Part shown: one piece after another, positions 7,498-34,768 of the stretch
Layout of the letters: each line of letters starts with the position of its first letter
Numbering within the stretch: position 1 is the first letter of the stretch
Assembly: GCA_946405185.1 (NCBI GenBank)
Contig: CAMJGH010000002.1
Location: 5,761 to 69,760 of the forward strand
DNA: 64,000 bases
Direction: 5' to 3'
Origin: an uncultured Lachnospiraceae bacterium
GTDB taxonomy: Bacteria; Bacillota; Clostridia; Lachnospirales; Lachnospiraceae
Made by a program: the position numbers and the translations under genes
The notes under the pieces: model-generated
What the model saw: only the letters and a program-made list of their open reading frames with translations
Databases searched by the model: none
Told to the model about the DNA's origin: nothing

Positions 7498-8825
7498 GCG
7501 CGCCTTCCGCCCGCGAGCTGGCCGTACGCCTTACGCAAAGCGTGCTGGAGGGCGATGCCTTCCTGCAGGATGAACTGACGAAAGCCATGGAGTCCGGTGC
7601 GCTGACGCCCGCCGACAAGCGATTTCTGCAGCGCCTGTCGCGCGGCACGGTGGAGCATGTGATGCTCCTGGACTGGTACATCGGGCAGGTTTCCTCGGTG
7701 CCGGTCCGCAGGATGAAGCCGCGCATCCGCGCCATCCTGCGCGTCACCGCGGAACAGCTTTTCTTCCTGGAGGTGCCGGACCGCGCCGCGGTCAGCGAGG
7801 CCGTCCGTCTGGCGAAGGCCATGGGCATGGCCGGACTGTCCGGCTTCGTGAATGCCGTGAGCCGCAAACTGGCCTCCCAAATAAACACCTTAACACCGCC
7901 AAAAGACCGGGCCACCCGGCATTCCGTGCCGGAGTGGATCCTGAAGGAATACGAAGCCTGCGCCACGGCAGACCGCCTGGACGCAGCGCTTGCCTACCTG
8001 AACGACCCGGACCGCCACGGCATCACCGTGCACCTGCACGAAGATATGCTGCCGGCGGATCAGATCATCACCCGCATGGAGCAGGACGGCCTGACCGTCC
8101 GCCTGCGCGACGATATCCCCGGAGCAGCGGATATCGAAGCCCCCGAAGGCCTCGGGAAGTGCACCTCCTTTGCGAAAGGCCTGTTTACCGTACAGGATGC
8201 CGGCTCCATCGCCGCGTGCCTGGCCGCGGGCATCTGCCCGGGCGATACGGTGCTGGATCTGTGTGCCGCCCCCGGCGGCAAAACGGTCTTTGCCGCCCAT
8301 GCCGCCGGTCCTTCCGGCCACGTGACGGCCAGAGACCTGAGCCGGGACAAGACCGATAAGATCACCGAAAACCTCTGGCGCTGCCGCATGCCGCAGGTAA
8401 AAACGGAAGTGTGGGATGCCACCACACCGGACCCGCGCTGGGTCGATCAGGCGGACGTGGTCATCGCCGACCTGCCGTGTTCGGGCCTGGGCGATATCGC
8501 CCGCAAGCCGGACATCCGCTACCGGCAGACGCCGGAGAGTGTAAAAGACCTGGCGGAACTGCAGCGGCGGATCCTCACCAATGCCGTCACCTACGTGAAG
8601 CCAGGCGGCACGCTGCTGTATGCCACCTGCACCGTCACGGAGGAAGAGAACGCCGGCAACGTGAAGTGGATGCTGGCCAGCTTCCCGGAGTATCATCTGG
8701 AAGAGGCGTCCGTCCCGGGGCTCACGCTCCCGGCCGGCACCAGCACGCCTTACGGTGTGCAGCTCCTTCCCGGTGAACTGGGAGGAGACGGATTCTTTTT
8801 CGCGAGGTTCGTGAGACAACAATGA
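7494..8825 (+). CDS. rsmB: 16S rRNA (cytosine967-C5)-methyltransferase
   Basis: NusB-like N-terminus plus SAM MTase motifs 'DLCAAPGGKT', 'DLPCSGLG' and 'LLYATCT'. Follows fmt as in most Firmicutes. Confidence 0.9.
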   Translation: MSAPSARELAVRLTQSVLEGDAFLQDELTKAMESGALTPADKRFLQRLSRGTVEHVMLLDWYIGQVSSVPVRRMKPRIRAILRVTAEQLFFLEVPDRAAVSEAVRLAKAMGMAGLSGFVNAVSRKLASQINTLTPPKDRATRHSVPEWILKEYEACATADRLDAALAYLNDPDRHGITVHLHEDMLPADQIITRMEQDGLTVRLRDDIPGAADIEAPEGLGKCTSFAKGLFTVQDAGSIAACLAAGICPGDTVLDLCAAPGGKTVFAAHAAGPSGHVTARDLSRDKTDKITENLWRCRMPQVKTEVWDATTPDPRWVDQADVVIADLPCSGLGDIARKPDIRYRQTPESVKDLAELQRRILTNAVTYVKPGGTLLYATCTVTEEENAGNVKWMLASFPEYHLEEASVPGLTLPAGTSTPYGVQLLPGELGGDGFFFARFVRQQ

Positions 8826-22927: not shown

Positions 22928-24181
22928 TCACCATTCATCCACGTTCAGTTTCTGTACCTGGGCTTTCTGCTGTTCCTTTTGCAGCTCCGCATAGAACCGC
23001 GCCGTGACCGCCACGCTCTTGTGGTTGAGCTGCTGGCTGGCCAGCTGCACGTTTCCGGTCTGTGACAGGATGCGTGTGGCGCAGGTGGCGCGCAGCTTGT
23101 GCGGCGAGAAGATGTCTTTGTCCGGATAGTCCGGCAGATACGTGCGGACCATTTCCTTGACCATCAGTTCCACCGCGCGCACCGTCATGCGGCCGCCGCG
23201 GGTGGTGATGAACACGGCTTCACAGTTCTTTTTCGGCCCCAGACCGGACCGCCCCTGCCGGCGCATGGCGGAAGCCAGCGCCTCCATATCGCGGTAGAAA
23301 CTCTCGGATTCCTCGGGGTAGGTGTCGCGCACCAGTCTGGCAAAGCCGGCCGTCATGGCGTTCTTCCGGCAGAATTCCAGTTCATCCTCCCCGTACTTTT
23401 CCGTGAGGGAAGAGGGGAGAGACGTACCGTCCAGATACATCTTCAGCGCCTCGGCTACCGCTTCTCCAAAGTACACTTCGTTCTCATCCCCGCCTTTGGT
23501 GACCACCGTAAAACACCCGCGATAGAAGTTGATATCCTGAAGATCCAGCCCCACCAGCTCCGAACACCGCAGCCCGGTGCCCAGAAACGTGCGCAGGATC
23601 GCGTAATTGCGCAACACCAGCCGGTCACGTTTTACCTGCACGGTCTCCGGAATGCTGATGACCACGGGTCTGTCTTCCCCTTCCAGCAGATACTTGTCGT
23701 TGGCCAGCACCCCCGTGAGCAGCCGGGAGGACAGATCCGCATCCAGCCGCACGATCCGGTGGCGGTTCAGCGCCGGATAGGAGAAGAACCGCATGGGGTT
23801 GTGCTCGGTGAAGCCGATGGCGTTCAGGTATTTGTAGAACACCGAGAGCGACGAAAAATACCGCTTGGACGACGCGTTGGTGATCATGCGCACGCGGTGC
23901 AGGTAGTCCCGGTATTCGTTCAGATCCTGGACGGAGAAGACGGTAAACATCTCCATGGGGAAGTCCTTCAGATCCGTTTCCGCCAGCGACGGCACCATTT
24001 CCTTCTCGTATTTCATGAACTCCACCACGTCCGACACGTAGTAGAGCTGCGTCAGCACCTCCTTGGTGCCGCCGGAGATGTGCTGGTAGAACCCCTGCAT
24101 GTAAGAGGGGGCGGTCTTCAGCACACGGCGGATCTTATCTTCAGCCTTGCGGTTCTGTTCATCGCGGTATTCAACAGACAT
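22928..24181 (-). CDS. Tyrosine site-specific recombinase (XerC/D / phage-integrase family)
   Basis: SAM-like N-domain and catalytic-domain residues: 'LRTFLGTGLRCSEL' (Arg), 'HKLRATCATRIL' (H-x-x-R) and 'LNHKSVAVTARFYAE' (His...Tyr). ATG at 24181 follows 'AAGGAGA'. The upstream Met at 24319 has no RBS. Confidence 0.85.
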   Translation of the reverse strand: MSVEYRDEQNRKAEDKIRRVLKTAPSYMQGFYQHISGGTKEVLTQLYYVSDVVEFMKYEKEMVPSLAETDLKDFPMEMFTVFSVQDLNEYRDYLHRVRMITNASSKRYFSSLSVFYKYLNAIGFTEHNPMRFFSYPALNRHRIVRLDADLSSRLLTGVLANDKYLLEGEDRPVVISIPETVQVKRDRLVLRNYAILRTFLGTGLRCSELVGLDLQDINFYRGCFTVVTKGGDENEVYFGEAVAEALKMYLDGTSLPSSLTEKYGEDELEFCRKNAMTAGFARLVRDTYPEESESFYRDMEALASAMRRQGRSGLGPKKNCEAVFITTRGGRMTVRAVELMVKEMVRTYLPDYPDKDIFSPHKLRATCATRILSQTGNVQLASQQLNHKSVAVTARFYAELQKEQQKAQVQKLNVDEW

Positions 24182-24312
24182 GACAGTCTCCTTAAGATTC
24201 AACCCACTGTGACATCGCTTACGGAAGAGGGCAGTTTGATGATAGCACTTCTTCGCATTATGTGCAATACTTCGAAATAATAAATTGATCTGAATCAGAT
24301 ATCCGTTCTTTC

Positions 24313-24341
24313 TTGACAATCTCCCGGATTTCCTTCATACT
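24313..24341 (+). promoter_or_regulatory. Putative sigma-A promoter of the collagen-like gene
   Basis: TTGACA (24313-24318), 17-nt spacer, CATACT (24336-24341). The ORF-track 'start' at 24313 is actually the TTG of this -35. Confidence 0.4.
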
Positions 24342-24399
24342 TTTTCAAGACAAAGATTTTCAGACATTTTTCAATCCTTTATACAGGAGTTATGAACCT

Positions 24400-26433
24400 A
24401 TGAATGACAACACCCCGCATAAGAACCGCACCCGGAAGGGCCTCCTGCTGGCTGCGCTGGCCATCGCCTGCCTGCTGCTGGCTTTCGGCATCGGCACGTT
24501 TGCCGGCGGCCGTGCCGCCAGGAAAGCCGTGCAGAACATCCCGGACACGACCATCAAAGAGGCCGGCGTGAGCGCGGACGGCGATCTGATCATCACACTG
24601 TCTACCGGGAAGACCATTAACGCCGGCCATGTGCTGGGTGCGCCCGGCCGTGACGGCGTTGATGGCAAAAACGGCCAGGACGGCGCTCCCGGCGCCAACG
24701 GTGCAGACGGAAAAGACGGGGCCGACGGCGCTCCCGGTGCTCCCGGAGCCGATGGCCGGAATGGCCTCAACGGTGCCAACGGAGCAGACGGCAAGGATGG
24801 CAGGGATGGCGCAGACGGCAGTGCAGGGCCTGCCGGACCGGCCGGAACCAACGGTACGGACGGGAAAGACGGTGTCGGTGTGTCTTCCGTGACCATCAGC
24901 GCCAGCCAGGAACTGATCATCACCTATACCGATGGTACCGCCCACAACGCCGGCTCTGTGAAGGCCGAAAAAGGCGATACGGGTGCCATAGGCGCGACAG
25001 GAGCCGCGGGAGCAGACGGGACCGGCATCTCCACGGTGGCTGTCAATGACGCCGGTGAACTGGTCCTGACGCTGACGGATGGCTCGGTCCTCAACGTAGG
25101 CCGGGTGGTCGGCCGTGACGGGCAGAATGGCGCCGACGGCAAAGACGGTGCCGATGGCCAGGACGGAAAAGACGGCAGAGATGGCGCGGATGGCCAGGAC
25201 GGAAAAGACGGTGAAAACGGCCAGGATGGCAAAGACGGCAAAGACGGACAGAACGGTGCCGACGGCATAGGCGTTTCGTCTGTCGCCATCTCGGATGATG
25301 GCAGTCTCACCATGACGCTCTCAAACGGGAACAATATAGAACTTGGAAACATCCGGGGAAAGGATGGTGCCCCCGGTGCCAATGGCGCTGACGGCAAGGA
25401 CGGTCAGGACGGCGCAGACGGAAGAGGCATTGAGTCTGCCTCCATCAACGAAGCCGGGGAGTTGGTCTTCACCTTCACGGACGGCTCGACGACGAACCTC
25501 GGCACGGTCGTGGGAAAGGACGGTAAAGACGGAGAGGACGGTGCTGACGGACAGCCCGGAAAGGACGGAAAGAACGGAAACAATGGAAGCAACGGCAAGG
25601 ATGGGGTCGGTATTGAATTGATCCAGAGGATCAATGATGAACTGATCGTAGTACTGACACCCGATTACCGCCCGGTAAACCTCGGCAATATCAAAGGTGA
25701 TAAAGGAGACACCGGAGACACCGGCCGCGGCATTACCGATGTCACTGTAAATGGTGACGGCAATCTGATCATCACCTATACCGACGGGACCACCCAGAAT
25801 GCCGGGCATATTGTCGATAAGAATACCCCCACAGACCCATATGCGATCGGCAGCGTCGTCACGATGGGCAAATACGAGCAGGATAACAACACCTCCAACG
25901 GACCCGAGCCCATTGAATGGATCGTGGTCCAGAATACAGGAAACAAAGCGTTGCTGATGTCCAAATATGTGCTGGAATATATGGCTATGTCGGATTCCCG
26001 GTACATGAGGTCCGCCGTTCGGGAGTTTCTGGAAGGTAATTTTTACTGGAACGCCTTTACCTACGATGAAACGAAAAAGATCCTGGACTCGCATATTCCC
26101 GATCTGAGTGCAGTCACACAAGGCAGAATAAACAATCATGTGTATATCTTCAGTTATGACGAAATAACAGCTCTTTCGCTGAACAACATCGATCTTACCC
26201 CGATTTTCACCCCCTATGTCCTGGCGAGAAACGGCAACAGGGAGGATGACGGCGTCTGGCTGCGGGATGAATATGACGGTTCCGGCAAATCAGGGGGCGG
26301 TAATTGCATCTATCGGACTTATCAAGGGTTCCTGCACATACAAAGTCCGACTGCGTTTACAGTTAACTATGTAATGAAACCAGAGGAGTCCTGCGGCGTC
26401 CGCCCCTCCATGTGGATTTCCATCGAACCGTAA
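24400..26433 (+). CDS. Membrane-anchored mosaic collagen-like (G-X-Y) repeat surface protein with DUF6273-like C-terminal domain
   Basis: ATG 10 nt after 'CAGGAG'. N-terminal TM '[21 protein letters not shown]'. Six G-X-Y runs (by my count about 27, 6, 18, 8, 11 and 4 triplets) alternate with seven ~27-aa modules, e.g. '[27 protein letters not shown]'. C-terminal '[42 protein letters not shown]' resembles DUF6273 (from memory). Confidence 0.8.
24637..25731 (+). repeat. In-frame collagen-triplet / beta-module repeat array (coding)
   Basis: Recurrent 'GGCAAAGACGGn / GACGGCGCn' 9-mers encode GKD/GAD/GQD triplets, interleaved with diverged ~81-nt modules. Confidence 0.85.
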
Positions 26434-26462
26434 CCGCTGAACCATACGATACGGACTCTTTC

Positions 26463-26492
26463 AAGCCGCCCGGCTTTCCAGGCGGCTTTTTT
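26463..26492 (+). terminator. Rho-independent terminator after the collagen-like gene
   Basis: 'AAGCCGCC' cggctttcca 'GGCGGCTT' followed by 'TTTT'. Confidence 0.75.
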
Positions 26493-26612
26493 CATGCGCC
26501 AAAAAAAGCCTTTCTGCCGTCCGTGGCACCACCTCCCCGAACCATCTCCGGTTTACAATACGGCAGATTCCGTCACACCAACTGTCAACTCAAAAAAAAT
26601 ATAATGGATCCA

Positions 26613-26640
26613 TATAACCATTTTCGTTCACGGGGCGTCT
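26613..26640 (+). promoter_or_regulatory. Candidate ECF-type promoter, copy A (TATAACC-N17-GTCT)
   Basis: 'TATAACCattttcgttcacggggcGTCT'. The GTCT ends about 60 nt upstream of the 26700 ATG. One of four copies with identical 17-nt spacing. Confidence 0.55.
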
Positions 26641-26699
26641 CTTATACAGAGGGGCAGTTCTGAACCCCGTCAAAACAATCCATGCAAGGGAGAAAGACA

Positions 26700-28106
26700 A
26701 TGAAGAAGATCAACTGGTTCGTGCTCTTGGTCATGACGGCGCTGCTGGCGCTTGCCGGCTGTGGAGGCGGCAAGACGATCAACCTGAATGACTACGTCAA
26801 GGTGACGTTCACCGGCAGCAACGGCTACGGAAAGCCCGAGCTGTCCCTCGATGAAGCAGGCCTTCAGAATGCCATCGACAAGGCGGCCGGCAAGTCCGAC
26901 GAAGAGAAGCTTGGTGCCGTGTGGGCGGCTTCGGGCGCCATGCAGGGAGAGTGGTCCGCTTCCGAAGGCCTCTCCAACGGGGATACGGTGACGTACCACT
27001 TCACCGCCAGCCAGGAGGAGCTTGCCAAACTCAGCAAGGTGCGTTTCCGCTTCAAGGACATCACCGTGAAGGTGACCGGCCTTCCGGAGCGCGAGGTGTA
27101 CGATCCTTTTTCGGAGATTGAGGTGACCTTCGAAGGCTTTTCCGGGAAAGGGGAGGTGAAGATCCAGACGAAGGAACAGACGGTGAAGGGCCTTACGTTC
27201 AAGGCTTCCCAGCCGGAAGGCCTTTCCAATGGCGACACCGTGACCATCACCTGTGAAGCGCCGAACGGCGATCTGGACGCCTACCTGGCCGAAAGAGGGA
27301 TGGCTGCTGAAAAGAGCAGCTGTGACGTGACCGTCTCCGGGCTTACGGAGATGACATCCTTCGATCCGTTCGAGTATATCACGGTGTCCTTTACGGGCAT
27401 CTCGCCGAACGGCTCCATCCAGGTGGAGCAGGCCGGGATGCCGGTCGGCACGCTGCAGTTCATCTGCGAAGAAAGCGGCCACATCATGACCGGCCAGACC
27501 GTCACGCTGAAGATCGACAGCACCGGATATGGCGACATCGTCGATTTCTGCGCGAAGTACGGCTACACGCCTTCACGCCTTTCCTGTGAGTACACGGCCG
27601 ACAGTCTGAACCGGTATGCGACGTCTTTGGATGACGTGTCGGAAGAGGTTCTGGTGCGCGTGGACCGGGCTGCTGAAGATTTCATGCAGGCGTATGCCAA
27701 CAAAGGCATGTCGGGCTTCCCGAACAGCGATTACTACCGCGGTATGACACGCGTGGGCAGCGCCATCATCAGCCGGAAAGATCTGAAGCCGATGCCCACC
27801 AGGCCGACCACCCGCCTGTATGTGCTTTACGAGGTGTCGATGGAGTATGAGGGTACCGCCATGTCCTACTACTATGTCTTTACCTATGACAACGTCCTGA
27901 CCGACGCGCAGGGGCAGATGCAGCTGGATGCGGAATCGTACCGGTATACCGATAACGGATACTTCAAGATGACGCAGGTTGTGTTCGGCAAGGGGCCCAT
28001 TAAGGGCAACTCCGGCTATGGATTCAAATCCGTGCAGGATTTCCTGGACGCAGAGGTGCTTTCAAAGACGGACGAGTATCAGTACGATACCGACCTTCTG
28101 CCGTAA
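26700..28106 (+). CDS. Lipoprotein with three tandem ~80-aa internal repeats plus C-terminal globular domain; function unknown
   Basis: Signal peptide plus lipobox 'LLALAGCGGG'. Repeats are marked by 'V(T/S)FxG..G.G' and 'GLSNGDTVT' ('MTGQTVT' in the third). ATG follows 'GGGAGAAAG'. Confidence 0.75.
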   Translation: MKKINWFVLLVMTALLALAGCGGGKTINLNDYVKVTFTGSNGYGKPELSLDEAGLQNAIDKAAGKSDEEKLGAVWAASGAMQGEWSASEGLSNGDTVTYHFTASQEELAKLSKVRFRFKDITVKVTGLPEREVYDPFSEIEVTFEGFSGKGEVKIQTKEQTVKGLTFKASQPEGLSNGDTVTITCEAPNGDLDAYLAERGMAAEKSSCDVTVSGLTEMTSFDPFEYITVSFTGISPNGSIQVEQAGMPVGTLQFICEESGHIMTGQTVTLKIDSTGYGDIVDFCAKYGYTPSRLSCEYTADSLNRYATSLDDVSEEVLVRVDRAAEDFMQAYANKGMSGFPNSDYYRGMTRVGSAIISRKDLKPMPTRPTTRLYVLYEVSMEYEGTAMSYYYVFTYDNVLTDAQGQMQLDAESYRYTDNGYFKMTQVVFGKGPIKGNSGYGFKSVQDFLDAEVLSKTDEYQYDTDLLP

Positions 28107-28123
28107 GAAGTTATTTATCTATA

Positions 28124-28152
28124 TTCAATATTTGCCCATCCTGTGCTATGAT
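28124..28152 (+). promoter_or_regulatory. Possible sigma-A promoter ahead of the sigma-fusion gene
   Basis: TTCAAT, 17-nt spacer ending in TGC, then TATGAT. Weak -35. Confidence 0.3.
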
Positions 28153-28208
28153 AAAGGCGGGGCGGTTACAAGCCCTCCTTTCCGACAGAGACCAAAGGAC
28201 GAACGACC

Positions 28209-29744
28209 ATGGACGAAAAGATGCTGCAGCAGGCTGTCACCCGCTTTCAGGCGGGCGATGAGCAAGGCTTCAATATGCTTTACTCCGCGTATTACAACCG
28301 CGTGAAGAGCGGCCTTTACTATATGCTCAATGACGAGCATCTGGCCGAAGACTTCACGCAGGATGCCTTCCTGAAGGTGTACCAATACATCAATCAGCTG
28401 AAAGAACCCGGCAGATTCCCTTACTGGGTAAACAGGATCGCCGCCAACTGCGCGAACGATTATCTGAAGAAAGGCATGGCGACAGAAAAGACGTTCACGT
28501 CGCTGACGCCTGAGGGGGAAGAAGAGTCTGCCTTCCCATCTGACCACTATGTCCGGAATCCGGATGACTATCAGCCGGAGCAGGCCTACAGCCGGCAGGA
28601 GACGCAGCGCCTCATCCGGGAGATCCTGGATGACCTCCCGGATGGCCAGCGCATCTCCGTAACCCTGTACTATTACAACCAGATGAAGGTGAAAGAGATC
28701 GCGGAGATCACCGGCGTCAAGGAGAACGCTGTCAAGCAGTCGCTCTACCAGGCCCGCAAGAAGATCACCGCCAAAGTGGAAGAGTTGGAAAAGAAGGGGA
28801 CGAAGCTGTATTCCCTGGCACCGTTTTCCTTTTTCCTGTGGCTTTTTCACGCCGAGGCCGAAGCCTCCGCACTGGTGGCGGTTTCGGCTGCCGGTGCTTC
28901 CGCGGTGGCAGCTGCAGCCGCTGCTGCGGGAGGCGCCGGTGCTGCGGCCACCGGCAGCGCTGCCATCGGTTCAGCCGGCGGCCTGGGCGCCTGGCTGGCG
29001 GGGCTTCCCGGACTGGCCAAGGCCGGGTTAGGCGTGCTGGTGATGGCTGCCGTCATTGGCGGCGGCATCGGCATTGGCTCTCTGGCCGGGAAAGGAGATC
29101 GACCCCCTTCCCCTGAGACTGTCACCATGATCACCTCGGAAGCCGCCACCGAGTCGTCCACAGCTGAAACCTCCGAAAGCAGCACCGAAGAGACCACACC
29201 GGCCCATGTGCACAACTGGGTGGAAGTGACGGAAACCATCCATCACGACGCGGAGTATGAGGTCATCCCCCACGAAGCAGAAATCAGTACGGAGACGGAG
29301 GTCATCCACCACGACGCGGTGATCCGCACCATCCACCACGAGGCGGAGTATACAGAAGAAACGACGTTCGTCCCAAATGGAGAGACGTACAATATGTACG
29401 CCTGCCCTGCCTGCGGCGCCACGGGGTTCATATATGAAGGCCCCGGCTCTGACATGACGAATCTGCAGAAATATGGCGAGCTCCAACACAATGACGGGTG
29501 CACGGGAAGCGGCGCGCTAGTCCCCGTCACAGGTTACGGGGGAGATTATGAAACCATCCAGGTGCTCCTCCGGGAAGCCTATGACGAAACCGTGCTGGAA
29601 GCGGAGGCCTGGGATGAGACCGTCACCCACACGGTGGTGGAAAAGGAAGCCTGGGATGAGACCGTGCTGGTATCGGACGCGTGGGATGAAACCATAGTCA
29701 CCGGCTGCATCTGCGAGGAGTGCGGCGAGACCAAACCCGACTGA
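28209..29744 (+). CDS. ECF (sigma-70 group 4) sigma factor fused to a TM segment and an extracytoplasmic His/Trp/Cys short-repeat domain
   Basis: Region 2 is 'DAFLKVYQYINQLKEPGRFPYWVNRIAANCANDYLKK'. Region 4 is 'LPDGQRISVTLYYYNQMKVKEIAEITGVKENAVKQSLYQARKKI'. This is followed by an Ala/Gly-rich hydrophobic stretch with TM 'GLGVLVMAAVIGGGIGIGSL', an S/T/E linker and then HHDAEY-type and AWDET-type repeats with two CxxCG motifs. Confidence 0.8.
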   Translation: MDEKMLQQAVTRFQAGDEQGFNMLYSAYYNRVKSGLYYMLNDEHLAEDFTQDAFLKVYQYINQLKEPGRFPYWVNRIAANCANDYLKKGMATEKTFTSLTPEGEEESAFPSDHYVRNPDDYQPEQAYSRQETQRLIREILDDLPDGQRISVTLYYYNQMKVKEIAEITGVKENAVKQSLYQARKKITAKVEELEKKGTKLYSLAPFSFFLWLFHAEAEASALVAVSAAGASAVAAAAAAAGGAGAAATGSAAIGSAGGLGAWLAGLPGLAKAGLGVLVMAAVIGGGIGIGSLAGKGDRPPSPETVTMITSEAATESSTAETSESSTEETTPAHVHNWVEVTETIHHDAEYEVIPHEAEISTETEVIHHDAVIRTIHHEAEYTEETTFVPNGETYNMYACPACGATGFIYEGPGSDMTNLQKYGELQHNDGCTGSGALVPVTGYGGDYETIQVLLREAYDETVLEAEAWDETVTHTVVEKEAWDETVLVSDAWDETIVTGCICEECGETKPD

Positions 29745-29760
29745 AACTCATCACAAACCA

Positions 29761-29788
29761 TATAACCAAAACCCTTTTCAGGCGGTCT
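29761..29788 (+). promoter_or_regulatory. Candidate ECF-type promoter, copy B (TATAACC-N17-GTCT)
   Basis: 'TATAACCaaaacccttttcaggcgGTCT', about 140 nt upstream of the XRE gene start. Confidence 0.45.
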
Positions 29789-29929
29789 TTCCTAACAGGA
29801 GGGGCCGCCTGAACGCATATCAGCACCTGATGGACTGTTTACGATACGGCAACTTTCATAAGCCCAACAGTCACCCTCTTATGAGTACAATTATATAGTT
29901 ATGCCAAAGCCATAAGGAGGTGACAGATT

Positions 29930-30235
29930 TTGGAGCACTTGGCTGAAAAACTGAAGCTGGCGCGTCAAAACGCGCATCTGACGCAGGCCCAGGTGGCTTC
30001 CATGGTCGGACTGAACAAAGCGGCTATCTCTACCTACGAGACCGGCACCAGAAGGCCTTCGTTTGAAGTCTTATGCCGGCTTGCGTCCATATACAAAGTG
30101 AGCGTCGATTACCTGTTTGGACTGTCTGAAAGCAGCTCCATCCAAACGGAAGGCCTGACCGCCGAAGAGACGGAGCTGATCCGTTCACTCATCCGGATCA
30201 TGGAAAAGAAGCACCCGGAGACAGGCGAAAAATAA
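29930..30235 (+). CDS. XRE-family helix-turn-helix transcriptional regulator
   Basis: TTG start 9 nt after 'AAGGAGG'. 'LKLARQNAHLTQAQVASMVGLNKAAISTYETGTRRPSFEVLCRLASIYKVSVDYLFG' is a canonical Cro/C1 HTH. Confidence 0.85.
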   Translation: MEHLAEKLKLARQNAHLTQAQVASMVGLNKAAISTYETGTRRPSFEVLCRLASIYKVSVDYLFGLSESSSIQTEGLTAEETELIRSLIRIMEKKHPETGEK

Positions 30236-30248
30236 TGTCCAGAAACCG

Positions 30249-30276
30249 TATAACCTTTTCCGTTCTCAGGCGGTCT
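30249..30276 (+). promoter_or_regulatory. Candidate ECF-type promoter, copy C (TATAACC-N17-GTCT)
   Basis: 'TATAACCttttccgttctcaggcgGTCT'. The GTCT ends 30 nt before the 30307 ATG. Confidence 0.45.
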
Positions 30277-30306
30277 TTATCTATGAGATCCAAAAGGAGG
30301 ACCATC

Positions 30307-31698
30307 ATGAAAAAACACATCGCCATTCTGACCGTCACCTGTATCATCCTGATCCTTTCCGGCTGCCGGAAAGCCACGCAGGCGGACACGCTGCCGGAAA
30401 CCACCGCTCAGACCGCTGCCGTGGAGACCACAGAAGAGAACACCCCGGCGTCCACCGAAGAAGAGCTTCAAACGGCAGACGAGGCTTCCCGTGAGCCTTC
30501 CACCAGACGTGATCACGCTTACAGACCGACCGGGAAAGCCCTCGCGGTGCATGCCCGGCCCGCCGGAAAGGCCGGCATGACGTCTGAGGCATCCGCCGAG
30601 GCTGACGCCTCCGAAGAAGCCCTCGGGCTTCCGGCTGCGGCGGACGCCGCGGAAAACGTCAATCCCTCTGCCGCTCAGCCGACCGCTCCCACACCGGCAG
30701 AGAACGCCTCTCAGGAAGCACGCGCTGCCGAACCCGCACCGGCGCCCACCGAGACTCCCGCTGCTCCCGCACAGACACCGGCAGCGCAGGAGAGTGCCGC
30801 CCCCGCTCCTGCAGCACCCGCTCCCGCAGAAACCGCTGCTCCCACCGCTCCGGCGCCTGCCTTTACAGAAGGCTTCAACAACGCCAAGGCGTCCGAATTT
30901 GTCCAGCAGCTCAATGCGTTCCGTCAGGCTAACGGCCTTCCTGAAGTGCGTTGGGATGATACGTGCGCACAGGTTTCCGCGGAACTGAGCGCAAAGCGCA
31001 GCACCGGCGTGGCGACGGACGTGACGGAAGAGCACCTGAAGCGGCTGAACTGCAATACGATGCATTACGTCAGCATGTACGGTCCGGCCTCCGAAACCGC
31101 TGCAAAGCATTTCACAGGATTGAAAAACTATCCCGGCGAACCCGAGAAGCTGCTGGATCCGTCCCTCACCCGCATCGGTGTCGCTTTCTACGATCATATG
31201 AGCGCCCAGGGAGAATGGTGCGACGGATATCTGATCCTGGCGCCGGATGCGTTAAGCGCACCCATCTATATACCCGAGACCGAACCGGCACCTGCCTTCG
31301 ATCCGTATTTCGATGAAGCCGCGGCCATGCAGTGCTTTGAACTCACCAACGAGCTGCGCAGAAGCCTGGGACTCCCGGAACTGGTCTGGGACAGTGCCTG
31401 CCTTCAGGTATCCAATGTCAGAGCGCAGCAGCTGCCGGCAAACTGCACCCACGACCTCTTCTGGAGCGAGTTTGTCAAGGTGATGGGAGATCAGACGCCT
31501 TGTGCGGAAAACATCATGCACAGCCGCAGCACCTGTGACGGAGCCGTTGCTTTTGAGGGCTGGAAAAACTCCCCCAGTCACTACGCCGCCATGGTCAATC
31601 CGGCATACACCCGCGTGGCCATCACCATCTACCAGGTGATGTATGAAGGCGTCCCCTCCACCTTCGGCGTGATGATCCTGGCCGGACCCACACCGTGA
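30307..31698 (+). CDS. Lipoprotein with long Ala/Pro/Glu/Thr linker and two CAP/SCP (PR-1, YkwD-like) domains
   Basis: ATG 6 nt after 'AAGGAGG'. Lipobox 'ILILSGC'. The second domain has the CAP hallmarks 'AENIMH' and 'EGWKNSPSHYAAMVNPAYTRVAI'. The first domain is degenerate ('FVQQLNAFRQANGLPEVRWDD'). Confidence 0.75.
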   Translation: MKKHIAILTVTCIILILSGCRKATQADTLPETTAQTAAVETTEENTPASTEEELQTADEASREPSTRRDHAYRPTGKALAVHARPAGKAGMTSEASAEADASEEALGLPAAADAAENVNPSAAQPTAPTPAENASQEARAAEPAPAPTETPAAPAQTPAAQESAAPAPAAPAPAETAAPTAPAPAFTEGFNNAKASEFVQQLNAFRQANGLPEVRWDDTCAQVSAELSAKRSTGVATDVTEEHLKRLNCNTMHYVSMYGPASETAAKHFTGLKNYPGEPEKLLDPSLTRIGVAFYDHMSAQGEWCDGYLILAPDALSAPIYIPETEPAPAFDPYFDEAAAMQCFELTNELRRSLGLPELVWDSACLQVSNVRAQQLPANCTHDLFWSEFVKVMGDQTPCAENIMHSRSTCDGAVAFEGWKNSPSHYAAMVNPAYTRVAITIYQVMYEGVPSTFGVMILAGPTP

Positions 31699-31736
31699 TC
31701 CGCATCCCGTCGAATACAGAGTAAAGGAGAGTCATC

Positions 31737-32240
31737 ATGTTCGTAGCCTACATTCTGGTCTTTATCAGCTTAGGTTTTATCTGGGCATTCTGGAAGATGT
31801 CCTGCAGTTTTCTGTTCAACCTGATCCTGTTGTTTCTAACCTGGCTCTGGGACCACATGAGGATCACCTGCATCGTCCTCGCCATCACCATGGTGCTCGG
31901 TGTGGTCTTCACCGTCTTTTCCATCGGCTGGCGTGATCAGTACCACGAGCTCTTCTATGAGGGCAGCGCCATCGTCCGGTTCTTGGAACTGACGTCCGAG
32001 CCTCACGTGTTGGACTGGTATTCCTCCGGCTTTGAAAGCCTCTTCGGAAAACTGTTTGGCGCAGACTCCGGCACAGACGTGTTTGTCCAGGTGATCGGCA
32101 TCTATCTGGCTGCTTACCTGATACCGGTGATCCTCATGCTCATGATCGTCCTGCTCATGCCCATGTGTTTCATCAAGGTGTTGGCCGCCGCCATCGTACT
32201 GGATCTGATCCTCAAACTCTTTCAGCGCAGAAGAAAATAA
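31737..32240 (+). CDS. Polytopic membrane protein, unknown function
   Basis: ATG after 'AAAGGAGAG'. At least 4 hydrophobic helices. Probably co-transcribed with the CAP lipoprotein gene (38-nt gap, no terminator). Confidence 0.6.
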   Translation: MFVAYILVFISLGFIWAFWKMSCSFLFNLILLFLTWLWDHMRITCIVLAITMVLGVVFTVFSIGWRDQYHELFYEGSAIVRFLELTSEPHVLDWYSSGFESLFGKLFGADSGTDVFVQVIGIYLAAYLIPVILMLMIVLLMPMCFIKVLAAAIVLDLILKLFQRRRK

Positions 32241-32252
32241 GAACCCCAGCAG

Positions 32253-32284
32253 GCGGCCGCTTTATCGCAAAGCGGCCGCTTTTC
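32253..32284 (+). terminator. Rho-independent terminator
   Basis: 'GCGGCCGCTTT' atcgc 'AAAGCGGCCGC' followed by 'TTTT'. Confidence 0.85.
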
Positions 32285-32304
32285 GACAAAAACGGATACA
32301 GACA

Positions 32305-32332
32305 TATAACCATTTTCCTTCTTGAGCCGTCT
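32305..32332 (+). promoter_or_regulatory. Candidate ECF-type promoter, copy D (TATAACC-N17-GTCT)
   Basis: 'TATAACCattttccttcttgagccGTCT'. The GTCT ends about 55 nt before the 32387 ATG. The flanks and leader are homologous to copy A. Confidence 0.55.
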
Positions 32333-32386
32333 TATATACAGAAGGGCCGCACAGGCACTTCAAAACCATCCAGGGAGGAACACAAC

Positions 32387-33514
32387 ATGAAGACCATCAT
32401 CACTTTTCTCTGCAATCTCGGCAACGATCTGGCAGACGCCGCGCAGCGTGCGGCAGAGGCGATGCCCGGCGGCTGGTGGGGCCTCATCGGACTGACCATC
32501 GTCATGCTGGCCGCCAGCACGGCACTTTCGTACCGGTACAACCGGAAGACCACGGAAGTTTCCGGGAAAGAAGCCTGGACCAAAGCAATGACAGATCCCA
32601 TCGCGTGGATCGCAAAGCCGATCCGTAAACTGCTGAAGAAAAGCAACAGCTGGCTTGTACTCATTGTCCTGACACTGCTGATCGCTTCAGCCGGCTGTTC
32701 GGACGGCAATACCGTCACTCCGAATGACGATGTTCACAAGGCCTCCTCCGAGGAGCAAACATCCGCCCCGTCGAAAACCTCTGCGGCTGCTTCCTTCAGA
32801 AAGCAGAAAAAAGCCGCCGCTGCCAGGACATCGGAAGCGAAGGAATCTGAAGGAGCGAAAACCATCCTGGCTCAGAACTACACCGAAGCAGAAGCGGAAC
32901 AGTCGGCTGCTGAAACGGAAATCGCCATGCTGAGTTCTGTTGAAAGCGCAGAAGATACAGCCGAGAACGTCGAAAGTGTCACCACGGTTGCACCGACTGC
33001 TCATGAACACACGTGGGAGGAGATCGGCCATAACGAAAACGTCATGATCCGGGATGCCTATGATGAGCCGATCGTGGCAAAAGCAGCCTGGGATGAGCAG
33101 ATACTCGTAAAGGATGCCTGGGATGAGCAGTTACTGGTCAGCGATGCCTGGGATGAGCAAGTCATGGTGGAAGAGGAATGGGATGAGCCCATATATGAGT
33201 GTCACAGTTTCTGCAATCAATGTGGGATCGATCTGACTGTCAATTGTCCGGGAGAATACGTGAATCATTTGATGGATGTTCACGATGGTGCCGCCGGCTG
33301 GTATTCCAGAAACACTGAAGTTGATTCCATCCATCACGATGCGCAGTATGAGACCGTCCATCATGACGCGGAATACCAGACCGTTCATCATGAAGCTGAG
33401 TACCAGACGGTACATCATGATGCGGAATACGGAACCGTGCATCACGACGCTCAGTATGAACAGCGCTGGATCGTGGACGGATACCGATGCTCCGGGTGCG
33501 GTGAAGTCAAATAA
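32387..33514 (+). CDS. Membrane/lipoprotein carrying a module-swapped paralogue of the sigma-fusion ectodomain (AWDE x5, CxxC, HHDAEY x5, CxxCG)
   Basis: ATG 8 nt after 'GGGAGG'. TM 'WWGLIGLTIVMLAASTAL', then a second hydrophobic segment ending 'LLIASAGCSDG' (lipobox-like). An internal Met at 32588 would give a classical lipoprotein signal peptide. The C-terminal repeat domain is aa 205-375. Confidence 0.75.
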   Translation: MKTIITFLCNLGNDLADAAQRAAEAMPGGWWGLIGLTIVMLAASTALSYRYNRKTTEVSGKEAWTKAMTDPIAWIAKPIRKLLKKSNSWLVLIVLTLLIASAGCSDGNTVTPNDDVHKASSEEQTSAPSKTSAAASFRKQKKAAAARTSEAKESEGAKTILAQNYTEAEAEQSAAETEIAMLSSVESAEDTAENVESVTTVAPTAHEHTWEEIGHNENVMIRDAYDEPIVAKAAWDEQILVKDAWDEQLLVSDAWDEQVMVEEEWDEPIYECHSFCNQCGIDLTVNCPGEYVNHLMDVHDGAAGWYSRNTEVDSIHHDAQYETVHHDAEYQTVHHEAEYQTVHHDAEYGTVHHDAQYEQRWIVDGYRCSGCGEVK

Positions 33515-33524
33515 CAGGTTGTGA

Positions 33525-33728
33525 ATGATCATGCTGACAACTGACAAATTAAAGGAACTGATATGCCTTGGCATCGGATATGGGATGGATCCTCCGGATA
33601 AGGTGGAGGAAAGCTATGCCCGGCTGATGAAACGGGTGAGAGCGGCAGAAGCCTCATCCGGTAAGCGGGAGTTTGTTTCATCAGACATCGAAAAAGCAGA
33701 AGGACATCTGGCAATGCCGACGGGCTGA
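33525..33728 (+). CDS. Small hypothetical protein (67 aa), doubtful
   Basis: ORF 10 nt after the preceding stop. No convincing RBS, no recognisable domain, lower GC than the surroundings. Confidence 0.25.
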   Translation: MIMLTTDKLKELICLGIGYGMDPPDKVEESYARLMKRVRAAEASSGKREFVSSDIEKAEGHLAMPTG

Positions 33729-33797
33729 GTCTGGTTGATGGAAATTCTGTTTTCGCATAACTGCAATACTACGAAAAAGAGCATTTATCCCGAAAAT

Positions 33798-33840
33798 ACC
33801 CCGGAATTGCCTGTATCAGGCCTTTCCGGGGTTCTTTTTC
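33798..33840. terminator. Bidirectional terminator-like hairpin at the lgt 3' end
   Basis: 'ACCCCGGA...TCCGGGGT' stem with 'TCTTTTT' on the plus strand and 'TATTTTC' on the minus strand. Confidence 0.5.
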
Positions 33841-34768
33841 AGGCTTCCGGCTTTTCAGCGGATTCCTCGGTATGGTCGGCTTCCTCGGACGTTTCTTCGC
33901 TGGCAGCCGTCTTGTCTGCAGGTTCTGCTTCAGCTTCATCAGCTGTCTTGTCTGCAGCATCCGTGTCTTTCGTTTCCGCAGCGGCTTTTTCGGCTTCGTA
34001 TTCCGCATCGGCTTCGGCAATGGCGCCGCGTACTGTGCACATCCGGTACAGCACCACGCCCGCAATCAGCGTGAAAATGGCGATGAACTGCGATGTGGAA
34101 AACAGCCAGACGCTCCCGCGCGGATCTCCGCGGAAATACTCCATGGCAAACCGTCCGATGCTGTACAGGATCAGATACAGGCTGCCCACCTGGCCATCGT
34201 AGCGCTTTTTGCGGGCAAAGCCCAGGAGCACGCCGAAATGCAGGAAATTCAGTGCCGAACTCATGAGCTGCGTCGGGATCAGCTTCACATTGTTGGGGGC
34301 AAACTGGGAATTCTTGAACACGATGTGGCAGGCGGACGCGGTCTCTTTGCCGTAGCAGCACCCGGCCAGGAAGCAGCCGATGCGGCCGAACGCCTGTGCG
34401 AGCGCAATGGACGGCATGACCAGATCAAACATCTTAAAGAAATTCAGATGTTTGCGCCGGGTATACAGCCAGCCTGTGAAAATTCCCAGGACGATACCGC
34501 CATAGACCACAAAGCCGTCCGCCACGTTCAGGAACAGCTTCGGGTTGGCCAGATACGTCGGCAGTTCCACGATCCAGTACATGACCTTGGCGCCGACCAG
34601 ACCGCCGATACCGGCCCAAATGCCCAGGTAAAAGACGGTATCTTCATCGGTACCGTACTTTTTGGCGCGCTTCATGGCCACCAGAAACGCTGCCACAATG
34701 CCGACAGCCATCATCAGGCCGTATCCGTAGATGGTGATCGGCCCGATATGCAGCAATTCATTATGCAT
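33839..34768 (-). CDS. lgt: Prolipoprotein diacylglyceryl transferase with ~60-aa acidic low-complexity C-terminal tail
   Basis: 'IGPITIYGYGLMMAVGIVAAF' and 'GRIGCFLAGCCYG' Lgt-like blocks. Tail 'AEADAEYEAEKAAAETKDTDAADKTADEAEAEPADK...'. Confidence 0.88.
   Translation of the reverse strand: MHNELLHIGPITIYGYGLMMAVGIVAAFLVAMKRAKKYGTDEDTVFYLGIWAGIGGLVGAKVMYWIVELPTYLANPKLFLNVADGFVVYGGIVLGIFTGWLYTRRKHLNFFKMFDLVMPSIALAQAFGRIGCFLAGCCYGKETASACHIVFKNSQFAPNNVKLIPTQLMSSALNFLHFGVLLGFARKKRYDGQVGSLYLILYSIGRFAMEYFRGDPRGSVWLFSTSQFIAIFTLIAGVVLYRMCTVRGAIAEADAEYEAEKAAAETKDTDAADKTADEAEAEPADKTAASEETSEEADHTEESAEKPEA

Follow-up and report, generated by a model that had tools for sequence, protein, structure and literature searches.

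The stretch of DNA analysed here, 64,000 nt from an uncultured Lachnospiraceae bacterium (the window), carries on its forward strand a single gene in which an ECF sigma factor, a transmembrane (TM) helix and an ectodomain are fused. The gene and the parts of its product are as follows.

28209..29744, + strand: whole gene, ECF sigma - TM - ectodomain fusion, 511 aa; uninterrupted ORF, with the same or near-identical ORFs in independent assemblies
28278..28472, + strand: sigma-70 region 2, aa 24-88; Pfam PF04542 (Sigma70_r2), 48.5 bits, cutoff 24
28608..28766, + strand: sigma-70 region 4, aa 134-186; Pfam PF08281 (Sigma70_r4_2), 54.4 bits, cutoff 25.7
28776..28862, + strand: family-defining post-sigma4 motif VEELEKKGTKLYSLAPFSFFLWLFH, aa 190-218; conserved in 45 relatives and 65 genome loci
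28863..29021, + strand: Ala/Gly-rich low-complexity cytoplasmic linker, aa 219-271; from family composition
29022..29090, + strand: single Gly-rich TM helix, aa 272-294; hydropathy maximum 2.09
29091..29198, + strand: acidic S/T/E/P stalk, aa 295-330; seen in the sequence
29199..29741, + strand: ectodomain, aa 331-511; from alignments A1 and A5 and a profile search

Sigma2 and sigma4 make up a canonical ECF sigma at aa 1-195, and no Pfam match to sigma region 1 or region 3 was found in the protein, which thus has the domain content of an ECF (group 4) sigma-70 factor, sigma2 and sigma4 only. The initial annotation had read a single 511-codon ORF with both regions within aa 1-195 and had named failure against sigma HMMs as evidence to the contrary; the ORF call agrees with it, and the two Pfam models as well as the NCBIfam model TIGR02937 (sigma70-ECF, 94.4 bits, cutoff 42.9) exceed their cutoffs. 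The named NCBIfam sigma subfamilies (SigW, SigM, SigV, SigX, RpoE and others) were not reached, their best scores being 65-93 bits against cutoffs of 126-260. The nearest solved structures over aa 3-195 are ECF sigmas (sigmaE 1or7, SigW 5wuq and 8z6g), with E values of 1e-15 to 1e-19 between the sigma core and sigmaE, SigW and AlgU-type structures, and AF2 modelled aa 1-91 with pLDDT >95 and aa 123-195 with pLDDT >90. Further along the chain, hydropathy (Kyte-Doolittle, 19-residue window) reaches its maximum of 2.09 at aa 274-292, where a clear TM helix had been called, and the Ser/Thr/Glu linker and ~180-aa Cys/His/Trp repeat domain described behind it are both present. A second peak, at poly-Ala aa 221-239 (1.89), occurs in the window protein only; a second TM at this stretch was rejected as a family feature, the peak being lacking in relatives.

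We considered whether an assembly or sequencing artefact, or a pseudogene, might have joined a sigma gene to a membrane-protein gene lying downstream. The 90%-identity cluster of the window protein has five members of 506-511 aa. Three of these were read, each as the intact ORF, on contigs from three different samples (ERZ12302852, ERZ28612952 and ERZ27256871), and the ORF also lies on a 77-kb NCBI contig. Recurrence in at least three other samples and in the NCBI contig argues against an artefact, as does the retention of the layout at 30-45% identity across hundreds of species; the alignment with one relative of 36% identity (P0002) spans 97% of the length. Given the 511-aa protein in independent assemblies and the layout common to the best 120 relatives, a frameshift, for which a check had been proposed, is ruled out, and the chance of any such artefact is negligible.

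By sequence comparison, the window gene does not stand alone but falls in a large clostridial family, recognisable by a diagnostic motif after sigma4. Among species-representative genomes, the family has at least 357 loci, spread over Lachnospiraceae, Oscillospiraceae, Acutalibacteraceae, Mogibacterium and Eubacteriaceae, and a genome holds several paralogues; the gut-commensal genera with multiple copies per genome include Faecalibacterium, Roseburia, Agathobacter, Blautia and Ruminococcus. Among the best 120 relatives of the sigma domain (mostly 450-857 aa, a few 284-356 aa), all but two have a single hydrophobic segment 60-130 aa past sigma4. In P0087 none exceeds the threshold, and P0062, which looks chimeric, has a second one near its C-terminus. 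About 65 complete ORFs from species-representative genomes (362-939 aa) have exactly one TM in all cases except L048. The family plan is an ECF sigma, a near-invariant ~25-aa motif, a disordered Ala/Gly/Ser/Thr linker of ~55 aa, a Gly-rich TM, an acidic stalk and an exchangeable ectodomain. The ectodomains are heterogeneous, falling into 27 clusters among 66, and BspA-type LRR is one of the kinds other than that of the window protein, in which one TM 60-130 aa after the motif is followed by an extracytoplasmic domain of >150 aa. The fusion is thus kept in the best 120 relatives and the ~65 genome ORFs, and homologues are not universally split into sigma and anti-sigma genes, the outcome that the initial annotation had held would count against it. 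In phage and plasmid collections, only the sigma domain found matches, and a full-length relative was absent.

The window protein carries ELEKKGTKLYSLAPFSFFLWLF at aa 192-213, a match to the family motif [ED]LEKKGTKLY...P.PFLL.L. This motif is almost invariant family-wide (ELEKKGTKLYsLAPxPFLLWL), with the consensus kKIe.kV.eLEKKGTKLYslaPiPFLllLfr across 65 genome loci. In 45 diverse relatives, G197 and L200 are invariant and L193, E194, K195, K196, T198, K199, Y201 and F208 are at least 90% conserved, and the motif is conserved as well as the sigma core or better. The linker is kept in kind across the family, not in sequence (A 28%, G 14.5%, T 9%, S 9%; median length 56 aa). We built an AF2 model of aa 1-305 to seek docking of the extension on the sigma. 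The extension was of low confidence, with pLDDT of only ~63 for the motif and <50 for the linker, and a helix at aa 205-238 (pLDDT 47-64) without a confident fold; the model therefore gives no structural support for an autoinhibitory contact. At the membrane, the TM has at least three Gly in 61 of 65 loci and K/R just ahead of it in 55 of 65, and K271, just before the TM, is at least 90% conserved in the 45 relatives. The identity of the TM is conserved although the ectodomains are unrelated, and the residues after it are rich in E (18%) and S (10%). The abundance of helix-destabilising Gly in the TM and its position behind an Ala-rich tract, both kept despite the unrelated ectodomains, hint at proteolysis.

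The genes and promoter-like sites around the sigma gene are given below.

26615..26640, + strand: promoter-like site TAACC-N16-CGTCT upstream of the lipoprotein gene; matches the family-wide motif
26700..28106, + strand: lipoprotein gene, 468 aa from MKKINWF; its family recurs beside family sigma genes
29763..29788, + strand: promoter-like site TAACC-N16-GGTCT, 19 nt past the sigma stop codon, upstream of the HTH gene; from a motif scan
29930..30235, + strand: XRE/HTH_3 regulator gene, 101 aa; Pfam HTH_3, 54.4 bits
30251..30276, + strand: promoter-like site TAACC-N16-GGTCT between the HTH and CAP genes; from a motif scan
30307..31698, + strand: CAP/YkwD-domain lipoprotein gene; Pfam CAP, 82 bits
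31737..32240, + strand: multi-TM membrane protein after the CAP gene, 167 aa; no family match
32307..32332, + strand: promoter-like site TAACC-N16-CGTCT upstream of the ectodomain paralogue; from a motif scan
32387..33514, + strand: free paralogue of the sigma ectodomain, 375 aa; by BLASTP, with a membrane/lipoprotein-type N-terminus

Pfam and NCBIfam scans found no anti-sigma family among the flanking ORFs, as the initial annotation had claimed for stand-alone genes, and no anti-sigma domain in the C-terminal extension of the window protein or of 10 family members; zf-HC2 and RskA had no match at E<=0.1 in the window protein. A class I anti-sigma domain, a folded helical unit of ~80 aa docking on sigma2 and sigma4, is therefore not recognisable, although an inhibitory element that is novel or very short could be present. 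Clustering of the neighbours at 70 family loci found no gene family in more than 10, no conserved anti-sigma partner and no conserved protease gene nearby. The cluster of the upstream lipoprotein is present at 9 of the 70 loci, and a homologue at L015 (E 1.7e-13) stands behind the same promoter motif. A small zinc-ribbon/TM protein lies beside the sigma gene in only 6 of the 70, and the HTH gene is a neighbour also in L001, L002 and L083. The gene caller starts the CAP gene (463 aa) downstream of the site at 30251..30276. The upstream lipoprotein also has weak similarity to the P0110 ectodomain (E 0.002), on which we did not rely.

An anti-sigma or adaptor encoded elsewhere could instead be the main regulator and recognise EKKGTKLY...PFLLWL, in which case the ectodomain would be an anchor or surface module, not a sensor. 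A motif conserved at least as well as the sigma core would imply a conserved binding partner, and the sharing of the motif by paralogues within one genome and the diversity of the ectodomains would fit such an arrangement. Nevertheless, the 70 neighbourhoods contain no conserved candidate, and core RNA polymerase, the membrane or a protease would serve equally as the partner of the motif. Furthermore, sensor diversification usually shows itself as variable ectodomains on a constant core, and we consider an unlinked partner quite improbable.

The ectodomain of the window protein (~180 aa) consists of metal-ligand-rich H/C/W repeats in the order HxHxW, (T.HHDAxY)n, CxxCG with a C2H2-like centre, (AWDETV)n and a C-terminal CxxCGxTK. 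It has no match in Pfam and had not been recognised in the initial annotation; a profile search matched 2,024 clusters, and the domain is thus a real family. Its homologues are lipoproteins or fusions with CWB2, PG_binding_1 or surface Ig-like domains. The AF2 model of the ectodomain was of low confidence (mean pLDDT 59.7), and a Foldseek search of it against the PDB returned nothing with E<1. The free paralogue at 32387..33514 matches the sigma ectodomain in two blocks (BLASTP, 6e-13 and 2e-12) in permuted order, the AWDE and HHDA blocks being swapped, and its N-terminus has hydrophobic segments and a lipobox-like SAGC.

An N-in/C-out topology is predicted. It is supported by the charges flanking the TM (N-side +2.0 K/R and 0.03 D/E; C-side 1.5 K/R and 1.9 D/E), by the occurrence of the ectodomain on lipoproteins and on CWB2 and PG_binding_1 surface proteins, and by the lipoprotein-type signal on the window paralogue. 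In a two-TM or re-entrant arrangement, the poly-Ala stretch or LAPxPFLLWL would span the membrane too, and the Cys/His-rich C-terminal domain would be cytoplasmic, a metal-sensing extension of CorE type. Its CxxC pairs, many His and C2H2-like centre are commoner in cytoplasmic proteins, and the poly-Ala peak of the window protein points the same way. However, the relatives are without a second peak and the motif segment is always below the TM threshold, while the ectodomain is also found behind lipoprotein signal peptides and on cell-surface proteins and the flank charges favour N-in/C-out, so that a second membrane passage is very improbable.

A family-wide ECF-type promoter motif, AACC-N16-CGTCT, was counted 25 times on the gene strand of the family loci; the opposite strand had 3 copies and shuffled sequence 1.2. 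The relaxed AACC form was used for this count because the strict TAACC...CGTCT variant is nearly absent from other family loci, which use AAAACC. Nearly half of the positioned sites (11 of 23) precede the family sigma gene itself by 140-320 nt, and the remainder stand before adjacent genes, mostly for membrane or secreted proteins. Around the window gene, there are three exact ATATAACC-N16-SGTCT sites, versus 0.00 expected, and a fourth relaxed site; all four are intergenic, on the same strand and conserved in independent assemblies. They have the AAC (-35)/CGT (-10) form of ECF promoters, which are often autoregulatory, and position and enrichment make them candidate targets of the window sigma. 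No copy lies directly upstream of the window sigma gene. The nearest is 1.6 kb off, before the lipoprotein gene, where the site at 26615..26640 possibly drives a lipoprotein-sigma operon. The 100-nt gap before the sigma gene has only a weak hairpin and a weak sigmaA-like candidate picked manually (TTCAAT-N17-TATGAT at 28124-28152), and a scan for sigmaA-type promoters there gave nothing convincing.

Several known systems resemble the window protein in part. IutY of Pseudomonas putida (ECF243), a FecI-type ECF sigma with a FecR-type anti-sigma, likewise joins an N-terminal sigma through one TM to a C-terminal extracytoplasmic domain in the same chain. Its sigma is freed through regulated proteolysis by Prc and RseP, so that release of a fused sigma in this way has been seen before (PMC8999054). 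IutY, however, works in Gram-negative cell-surface signalling with its FecR domain and a TonB-dependent receptor, whereas the window protein is Gram-positive clostridial, has no recognisable FecR or other anti-sigma domain and carries an unrelated ectodomain; no FecR match was found in it or in 10 family members. According to PMC5826349 and PMC8999054, ECF52/SCO4117 of Streptomyces coelicolor (also ECF48 and ECF53) shares the long C-terminal extension with TM helices and an extracellular domain, and activation by proteolytic processing is predicted. In actinobacterial ECF52, sigma4 is followed by a zinc-finger (ZAS-like) domain ahead of the TM, and the protein also contains a Pro-rich region and a carbohydrate-binding domain. 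The cytoplasmic segment of the window protein has instead the EKKGTKLY motif and an Ala/Gly linker, with only one His and no Cys (none in aa 196-271, hence no HxxxCxxC zinc finger). The comparison with ECF52 made in the initial annotation therefore stands for the fused architecture, a class known from IutY and ECF52, and fails for the zinc-finger anti-sigma domain. The clostridial family may be catalogued as ECF262 (example SFB89493.1, Ruminococcus albus). That group comes from a clostridial genus, and Table 2 of PMC8999054 gives it under the ECF groups that carry regulatory extensions, 'mechanism: others'.

The two-gene modules sigmaW-RsiW, sigmaE-RseA and sigmaV-RsiV share a similar sigma core, an ECF-type promoter (AAC-N17-CGT) and a single-pass component with an extracytoplasmic sensor. 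RsiW and RseA are site-2-protease/Clp substrates, which the Ala/Gly-rich TM region of the window family resembles. In these modules, sigma and sensor are separate, whereas the window protein is one chain with no recognisable anti-sigma domain to sequester sigma2/sigma4. ToxR, CadC and TcpP, too, are single proteins whose cytoplasmic DNA-directed domain is joined through one TM to a periplasmic or extracellular sensor, but they are winged-helix activators that bind DNA directly, whereas the window protein is an RNA polymerase subunit.

With all the listed elements present and the fusion conserved, the one-component transmembrane signalling sigma first proposed from the letters of the DNA is the best fit. 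The protein is probably a single-pass N-in/C-out sigma that would be freed by regulated proteolysis and fire AACC-N16-CGTCT promoters. At rest, the sigma would be kept from productive use by tethering, possibly aided by the conserved motif. A signal at the ectodomain, the putative sensor, would bring about regulated proteolysis within the Gly-rich TM or close to it, and the freed sigma would direct RNA polymerase to the candidate promoters. The targets in the window would be the lipoprotein gene, the XRE-type regulator, the CAP-domain lipoprotein operon and the free sensor-domain paralogue; given the motif sites ahead of them, the output would be a local set of envelope or secreted proteins. 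The sigma gene itself would probably be transcribed by read-through from the upstream lipoprotein promoter.

Alternatively, the sigma could act while tethered in the manner of ToxR and CadC, a flexible linker of ~75 aa reaching RNA polymerase and DNA and the ectodomain acting by oligomerisation or conformation, with no proteolysis. The long disordered Ala/Gly/Ser/Thr linker is kept in kind, the small-residue-rich, GxxxG-like TM could support dimerisation, the candidate promoters adjoin the gene and drive envelope-protein genes, as would suit membrane-proximal transcription, and the 70 loci have no conserved protease gene nearby. On the other hand, a holoenzyme buries sigma2 and sigma4 on core RNA polymerase, which is sterically demanding at the membrane, and no sigma factor is known to us to work while membrane-anchored. 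Since IutY, the only fused sigma with experimental activation data, is freed by RseP and Prc (PMC8999054), action in the tethered state seems unlikely, if less so than an unlinked partner.

While the architecture class is already known, its anti-sigma-less clostridial version appears uncharacterised, and no experimental study of the family was found in the literature. We tentatively suggest a broader reading, in which the family would form a widespread anti-sigma-less one-component class of gut Clostridia, controlled by tethering and the ~25-aa motif, as a minimal inhibitor or a dock for a protease or RNA polymerase, with dozens of plug-in ectodomains. The regulon would include a permuted copy of the ectodomain, suggesting decoy or co-receptor feedback, and the ectodomain would be a new extracellular beta-repeat fold containing a Zn finger. 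The domain itself is a sizeable family of at least 2,000 clusters absent from Pfam. The finding points to a compact single-gene sigma system without a recognisable anti-sigma domain, present in multiple copies in abundant gut commensals, and raises the testable question of how a sigma is silenced without an anti-sigma. For experiments, the comparative data provide both a candidate promoter, AACC-N16-CGTCT, and a candidate regulon. With its exchangeable ectodomains, the constant core would also make an attractive chassis on which to build synthetic sensors in Firmicutes.

The ECF sigma factor, the membrane helix, and the ectodomain are encoded by one gene, which lies among the following features:

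22928-24319, - strand: tyrosine recombinase of the phage-integrase family, abutting a ~10-kb low-G+C block
24313-26433, + strand: collagen-like protein of 706 aa with five collagen triple-helix (G-x-y) blocks and a C-terminal DUF6273
26700-28106, + strand: upstream lipoprotein with repeated ~90-aa modules (…LSNGDTVT…)
28209-29744, + strand: tethered-sigma gene, one ORF of 511 codons
32387-33514, + strand: ectodomain paralogue whose N-terminus is of membrane/lipoprotein type and whose AWDE and HHDA blocks are permuted relative to the sigma fusion; it lies behind a promoter-like site
33839-34768, - strand: lgt, at the far end of the low-G+C block

Sigma regions 2 and 4, which the initial annotation had read in this uninterrupted ORF, were both recovered far over the Pfam cutoffs (Sigma70_r2 at aa 24-88 and Sigma70_r4_2 at aa 134-186), and the general ECF model of NCBIfam, TIGR02937, gave 94 bits against a cutoff of 42.9, confirming the N-terminus as an ECF sigma. 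None of the named NCBIfam sigma subfamilies (SigW, SigM, SigX, RpoE, and others) reached its cutoff. The solved structures closest to aa 3-195 were the ECF sigmas 8z6g, 6in7, sigmaE (1or7), and SigW (5wuq). The TM helix first placed at aa ~272-291 coincided with the top peak of a Kyte-Doolittle (KD) scan (aa 274-292, score 2.09), and downstream of it lay, as annotated, an acidic Ser/Thr/Glu stalk and a domain of ~180 aa with many His, Cys, Trp, Asp, and Glu residues. An artefactual origin of the fusion, such as a frameshift merging two genes, was rejected. In the 90%-identity cluster of the protein there are five sequences, 506-511 aa long, three of which lie on contigs of three different samples with the ORF intact and the same neighbours, and a more distant relative, P0002, aligned at 36% identity over 97% of the length.

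The best 120 relatives of the full-length protein, on which the family survey was based, were nearly all 450-857 aa long (a few 284-356 aa) and shared a common plan: an ECF sigma, a conserved motif, a low-complexity Ala/Gly/Thr/Ser linker, and one hydrophobic helix of the form K-I-x-A-G-x-L-A-x-A-V-I-G-G-G, beyond which the C-terminal regions were unrelated between relatives. The motif directly follows sigma4, with the strikingly conserved consensus kKIe.kV.eLEKKGTKLYslaPiPFLllLfr. In a 45-sequence alignment, G197 and L200 were invariant, L193, E194, K195, K196, T198, K199, Y201, F208, and K271 were at least 90% conserved, and conservation of these columns equalled that of the highest sigma-core columns. 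Exactly one hydrophobic segment (KD ≥ 1.6, overlapping sub-peaks merged) occurred 60-130 aa past the motif in all but two of the 120, namely P0087, with no segment, and the chimeric-looking P0062, with a second segment near the C-terminus; the motif itself never reached this threshold among the 120. A second peak of the window protein (aa 221-239, 1.89) is poly-Ala; it was discarded as a family feature, not being common to these relatives.

With the pattern EKKGTKLY and one genome per GTDB species, at least 357 family members were confirmed. They were found in Lachnospiraceae (Roseburia porci, Pseudobutyrivibrio, Dorea sp. 5-2, Anaerosporobacter mobilis DSM 15930, Agathobacter, Blautia, Anaerostipes, and Acetatifactor), in Oscillospiraceae/Ruminococcaceae (Faecalibacterium, Pseudoflavonifractor phocaeensis, and Ruminococcus), and also in Acutalibacteraceae, Mogibacterium, and Eubacteriaceae, commonly in multiple copies per genome (e.g., four in MAG HAN082). 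The ~65 complete ORFs in those loci spanned 362-939 aa (nearly all 447-939), and all except the one at locus L048 had a single TM; the ectodomains of 66 members formed 27 unrelated clusters, one type being a BspA-type LRR. As the single-TM plan is common to both the relatives and the species-representative loci, the fusion, whose conservation among homologues had been left to be surveyed, is the rule in this clostridial lineage and not the exception. Many members (P0008, P0014, P0025, P0048, and others, as well as those at loci L010 and L066) carry an N-terminal CxxC...CxxC zinc ribbon (PF13240) before sigma2; the window protein has none. NCBI labels the relatives plainly 'RNA polymerase sigma factor', and the literature searched contained no paper that describes these clostridial proteins or reports experiments on them; they form a large family, apparently uncharacterised.

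Averaged over 66 members, the TM was preceded by 15 residues with 2.0 K/R and 0.03 D/E and followed by 15 with 1.5 K/R and 1.9 D/E, and the 50 residues beyond these were 18% Glu; these charges fit an N-in/C-out topology. The ectodomain type of the window protein also stands behind classical lipoprotein signal peptides (P0121, P0122, and P0126) and forms the C-terminal end of proteins that carry CWB2, PG_binding_1, or surface Ig-like domains. In the paralogue, a strongly basic loop is followed by an h-region and then a lipobox-like SAGC. On these grounds, the C-terminal domain is predicted to be extracytoplasmic.

A single-sequence search with this ectodomain retrieved only 29 small unannotated proteins; a profile from 16 aligned sequences, run over 1.84 billion representatives, matched at least 2,024 clusters (50% identity) at E ≤ 1e-3, 894 of them with E ≤ 1e-10. 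In nearly all matches listed, a few long multi-repeat proteins differing, the domain was at or near the C-terminus, usually ending ...GYxCSxCGATK. One match, P0276 (3,179 aa), contained 38 matched stretches. The core runs HxHNW, (T-[VI]-H-H-[DE]-A-x-Y)n, CxxCG...H...NGGxC, (A-W-D-E-[TQ]-V)n, G-Y-x-C-x-x-C-G-x-T-K, where the HHDAxY and AWDETV units are 9-10-residue strands, both blocks vary in copy number, and some members have them in swapped order. Among the matches listed, sigma fusions with this ectodomain were few: the window protein's own cluster, P0002 (partial), P0119, and P0205. Similarity to a C2H2 zinc finger at the centre of the domain was weak (best E 3.5e-5); no Pfam family matched the ectodomain (window 29199-29741), and no fold matched its AF2 model, which was poor (pLDDT 59.7). 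Its many His, Asp, Glu, and Cys residues hint, speculatively, at metal binding.

The cytoplasmic segment between sigma4 and the TM (aa 196-271) contains no Cys and only one His, and thus no ZAS motif; no Pfam or NCBIfam family matched it at E ≤ 0.1, and no anti-sigma domain was found in ten further family members. Nor was a stand-alone anti-sigma gene detected in the flanks, as had been noted from the sequence: the upstream ORF encodes a lipoprotein of unknown family, and the others an XRE/HTH_3 protein, a CAP/YkwD lipoprotein, and a multi-TM protein without an N-terminal cytoplasmic domain. Neighbour clustering over 70 family loci gave no conserved partner, no ORF family occurring in more than 10 of them. 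In an AF2 model of aa 1-305 built with 45 relatives, sigma2 and sigma4 had pLDDT >90, the motif only ~63, and the linker <50, so the model speaks neither for nor against an autoinhibitory contact. Fused sigma/anti-sigma architectures are indeed catalogued, as stated in the initial annotation: PMC5826349 and PMC8999054 name IutY in ECF243, ECF52/SCO4117, ECF48, ECF53, and some ECF36, each with a recognisable FecR-type or zinc-finger anti-sigma domain. The main difference is that no such domain was detected in the clostridial family.

A ~45-bp element is repeated in the intergenic DNA before three genes neighbouring the tethered-sigma gene. Its core, ATATAACC-N16-[CG]GTCT, had three copies in the window, where 0.00 were expected, and the relaxed form TAACC-N15-17-[CG]GTC added one more, giving four promoter-like sites:

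26615, + strand: before the lipoprotein gene that lies upstream of the sigma gene
29763, + strand: 19 nt past the sigma stop and ahead of the HTH gene
30251, + strand: after the HTH gene, ahead of where the CAP-lipoprotein gene really starts
32307, + strand: before the ectodomain paralogue

All four are intergenic and kept in independent assemblies, and their AAC-N17-CGTC spacing has the classic -35/-10 layout of ECF promoters. Over the 70 family loci, the counts of AACC-N16-CGTCT were 25 on the sigma-gene strand, 3 on the opposite strand, and 1.2 in shuffles, with no excess of AAC...CGTC at the adjacent spacings N16 and N18; the family consensus was TTAAAACC-N16-CGTCTAgg. Eleven of 23 family sites preceded a family sigma gene itself, at 140-320 nt from its predicted start codon (L007, L010, L012, L019, L025, L031, L060, L065, L067, L069, and L075), which implies unusually long 5' leaders that might hold a further regulatory element. 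The remaining sites precede adjacent genes, mostly for membrane or secreted products and a few for small, uncharacterised ones; one encodes a homologue of the window lipoprotein (L015, E 1.7e-13). This pattern is what would be expected of an ECF sigma that regulates its own gene and a local set of envelope genes, and from position and enrichment we infer that the window sigma reads sites of this type. Its gene has no promoter-like site of its own and so may be expressed by read-through from the lipoprotein promoter. The site past the sigma stop overlaps an inverted repeat (TTCAGGCGG...CCGCCTGAA, window 29775-29815) without a T-run, which may be a terminator or attenuator overlapping the downstream promoter.

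The protein thus comprises a complete ECF sigma, a ~75-residue tether, a single TM, and an outside domain, a conserved plan that upholds its initial reading as a one-component transmembrane signalling sigma. The TM sequence and the motif next to sigma4 are kept across members with unrelated ectodomains, and an ECF-type promoter is enriched beside family genes. In the proposed scheme, the ectodomain would sense a signal, the sigma would be unavailable while tethered, and a cut in or near the Gly-rich TM would free it. Cleavage at the TM is favoured because the helix is Gly-rich (at least three Gly in 61 of 65 members), Lys precedes it in 55 of 65, and an Ala-rich tract lies upstream. The region resembles RsiW and RseA, substrates of site-2-protease and Clp steps. 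The long flexible linker would also permit the sigma to signal while still tethered, as ToxR does; we regard this main rival as rather unlikely. Action after release is the reading we somewhat favour, and the release would be comparable to that of IutY, which depends on RseP/Prc (PMC8999054).

The sigma gene and its candidate regulon may be carried on an integrated island, a ~10-kb block (~24000-34000) with 52-58% G+C against 60-65% in the flanks, which ends at lgt. The collagen-like gene is the first of the run of + strand genes to which the sigma gene belongs; in its product, G-x-y blocks alternate with short beta-like modules behind a membrane-anchor-like N-terminus. An independent assembly of the locus (L083) has, at 7135-8749, one more gene between the paralogue and lgt, encoding an HTH_3 protein of 459 aa with a faint HipA_C match; the gene is absent from window ~33515-33840, so the block edge varies between strains. 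Of the 70 loci, 9, including L015 (7570-8781), have a member of the upstream-lipoprotein family next to the family sigma gene, and a weak match (E 0.002) suggests that the lipoprotein module may double as the ectodomain of another family sigma, P0110.

One-component ECF sigmas extended by a TM are a known kind, of which the tethered-sigma gene is a variant. ECF262, represented by a Ruminococcus albus protein and tabled in a 2022 review (PMC8999054) with those groups whose regulatory extensions act by an unknown mechanism, may be the same clostridial family, for which there are now a candidate promoter and a candidate regulon.
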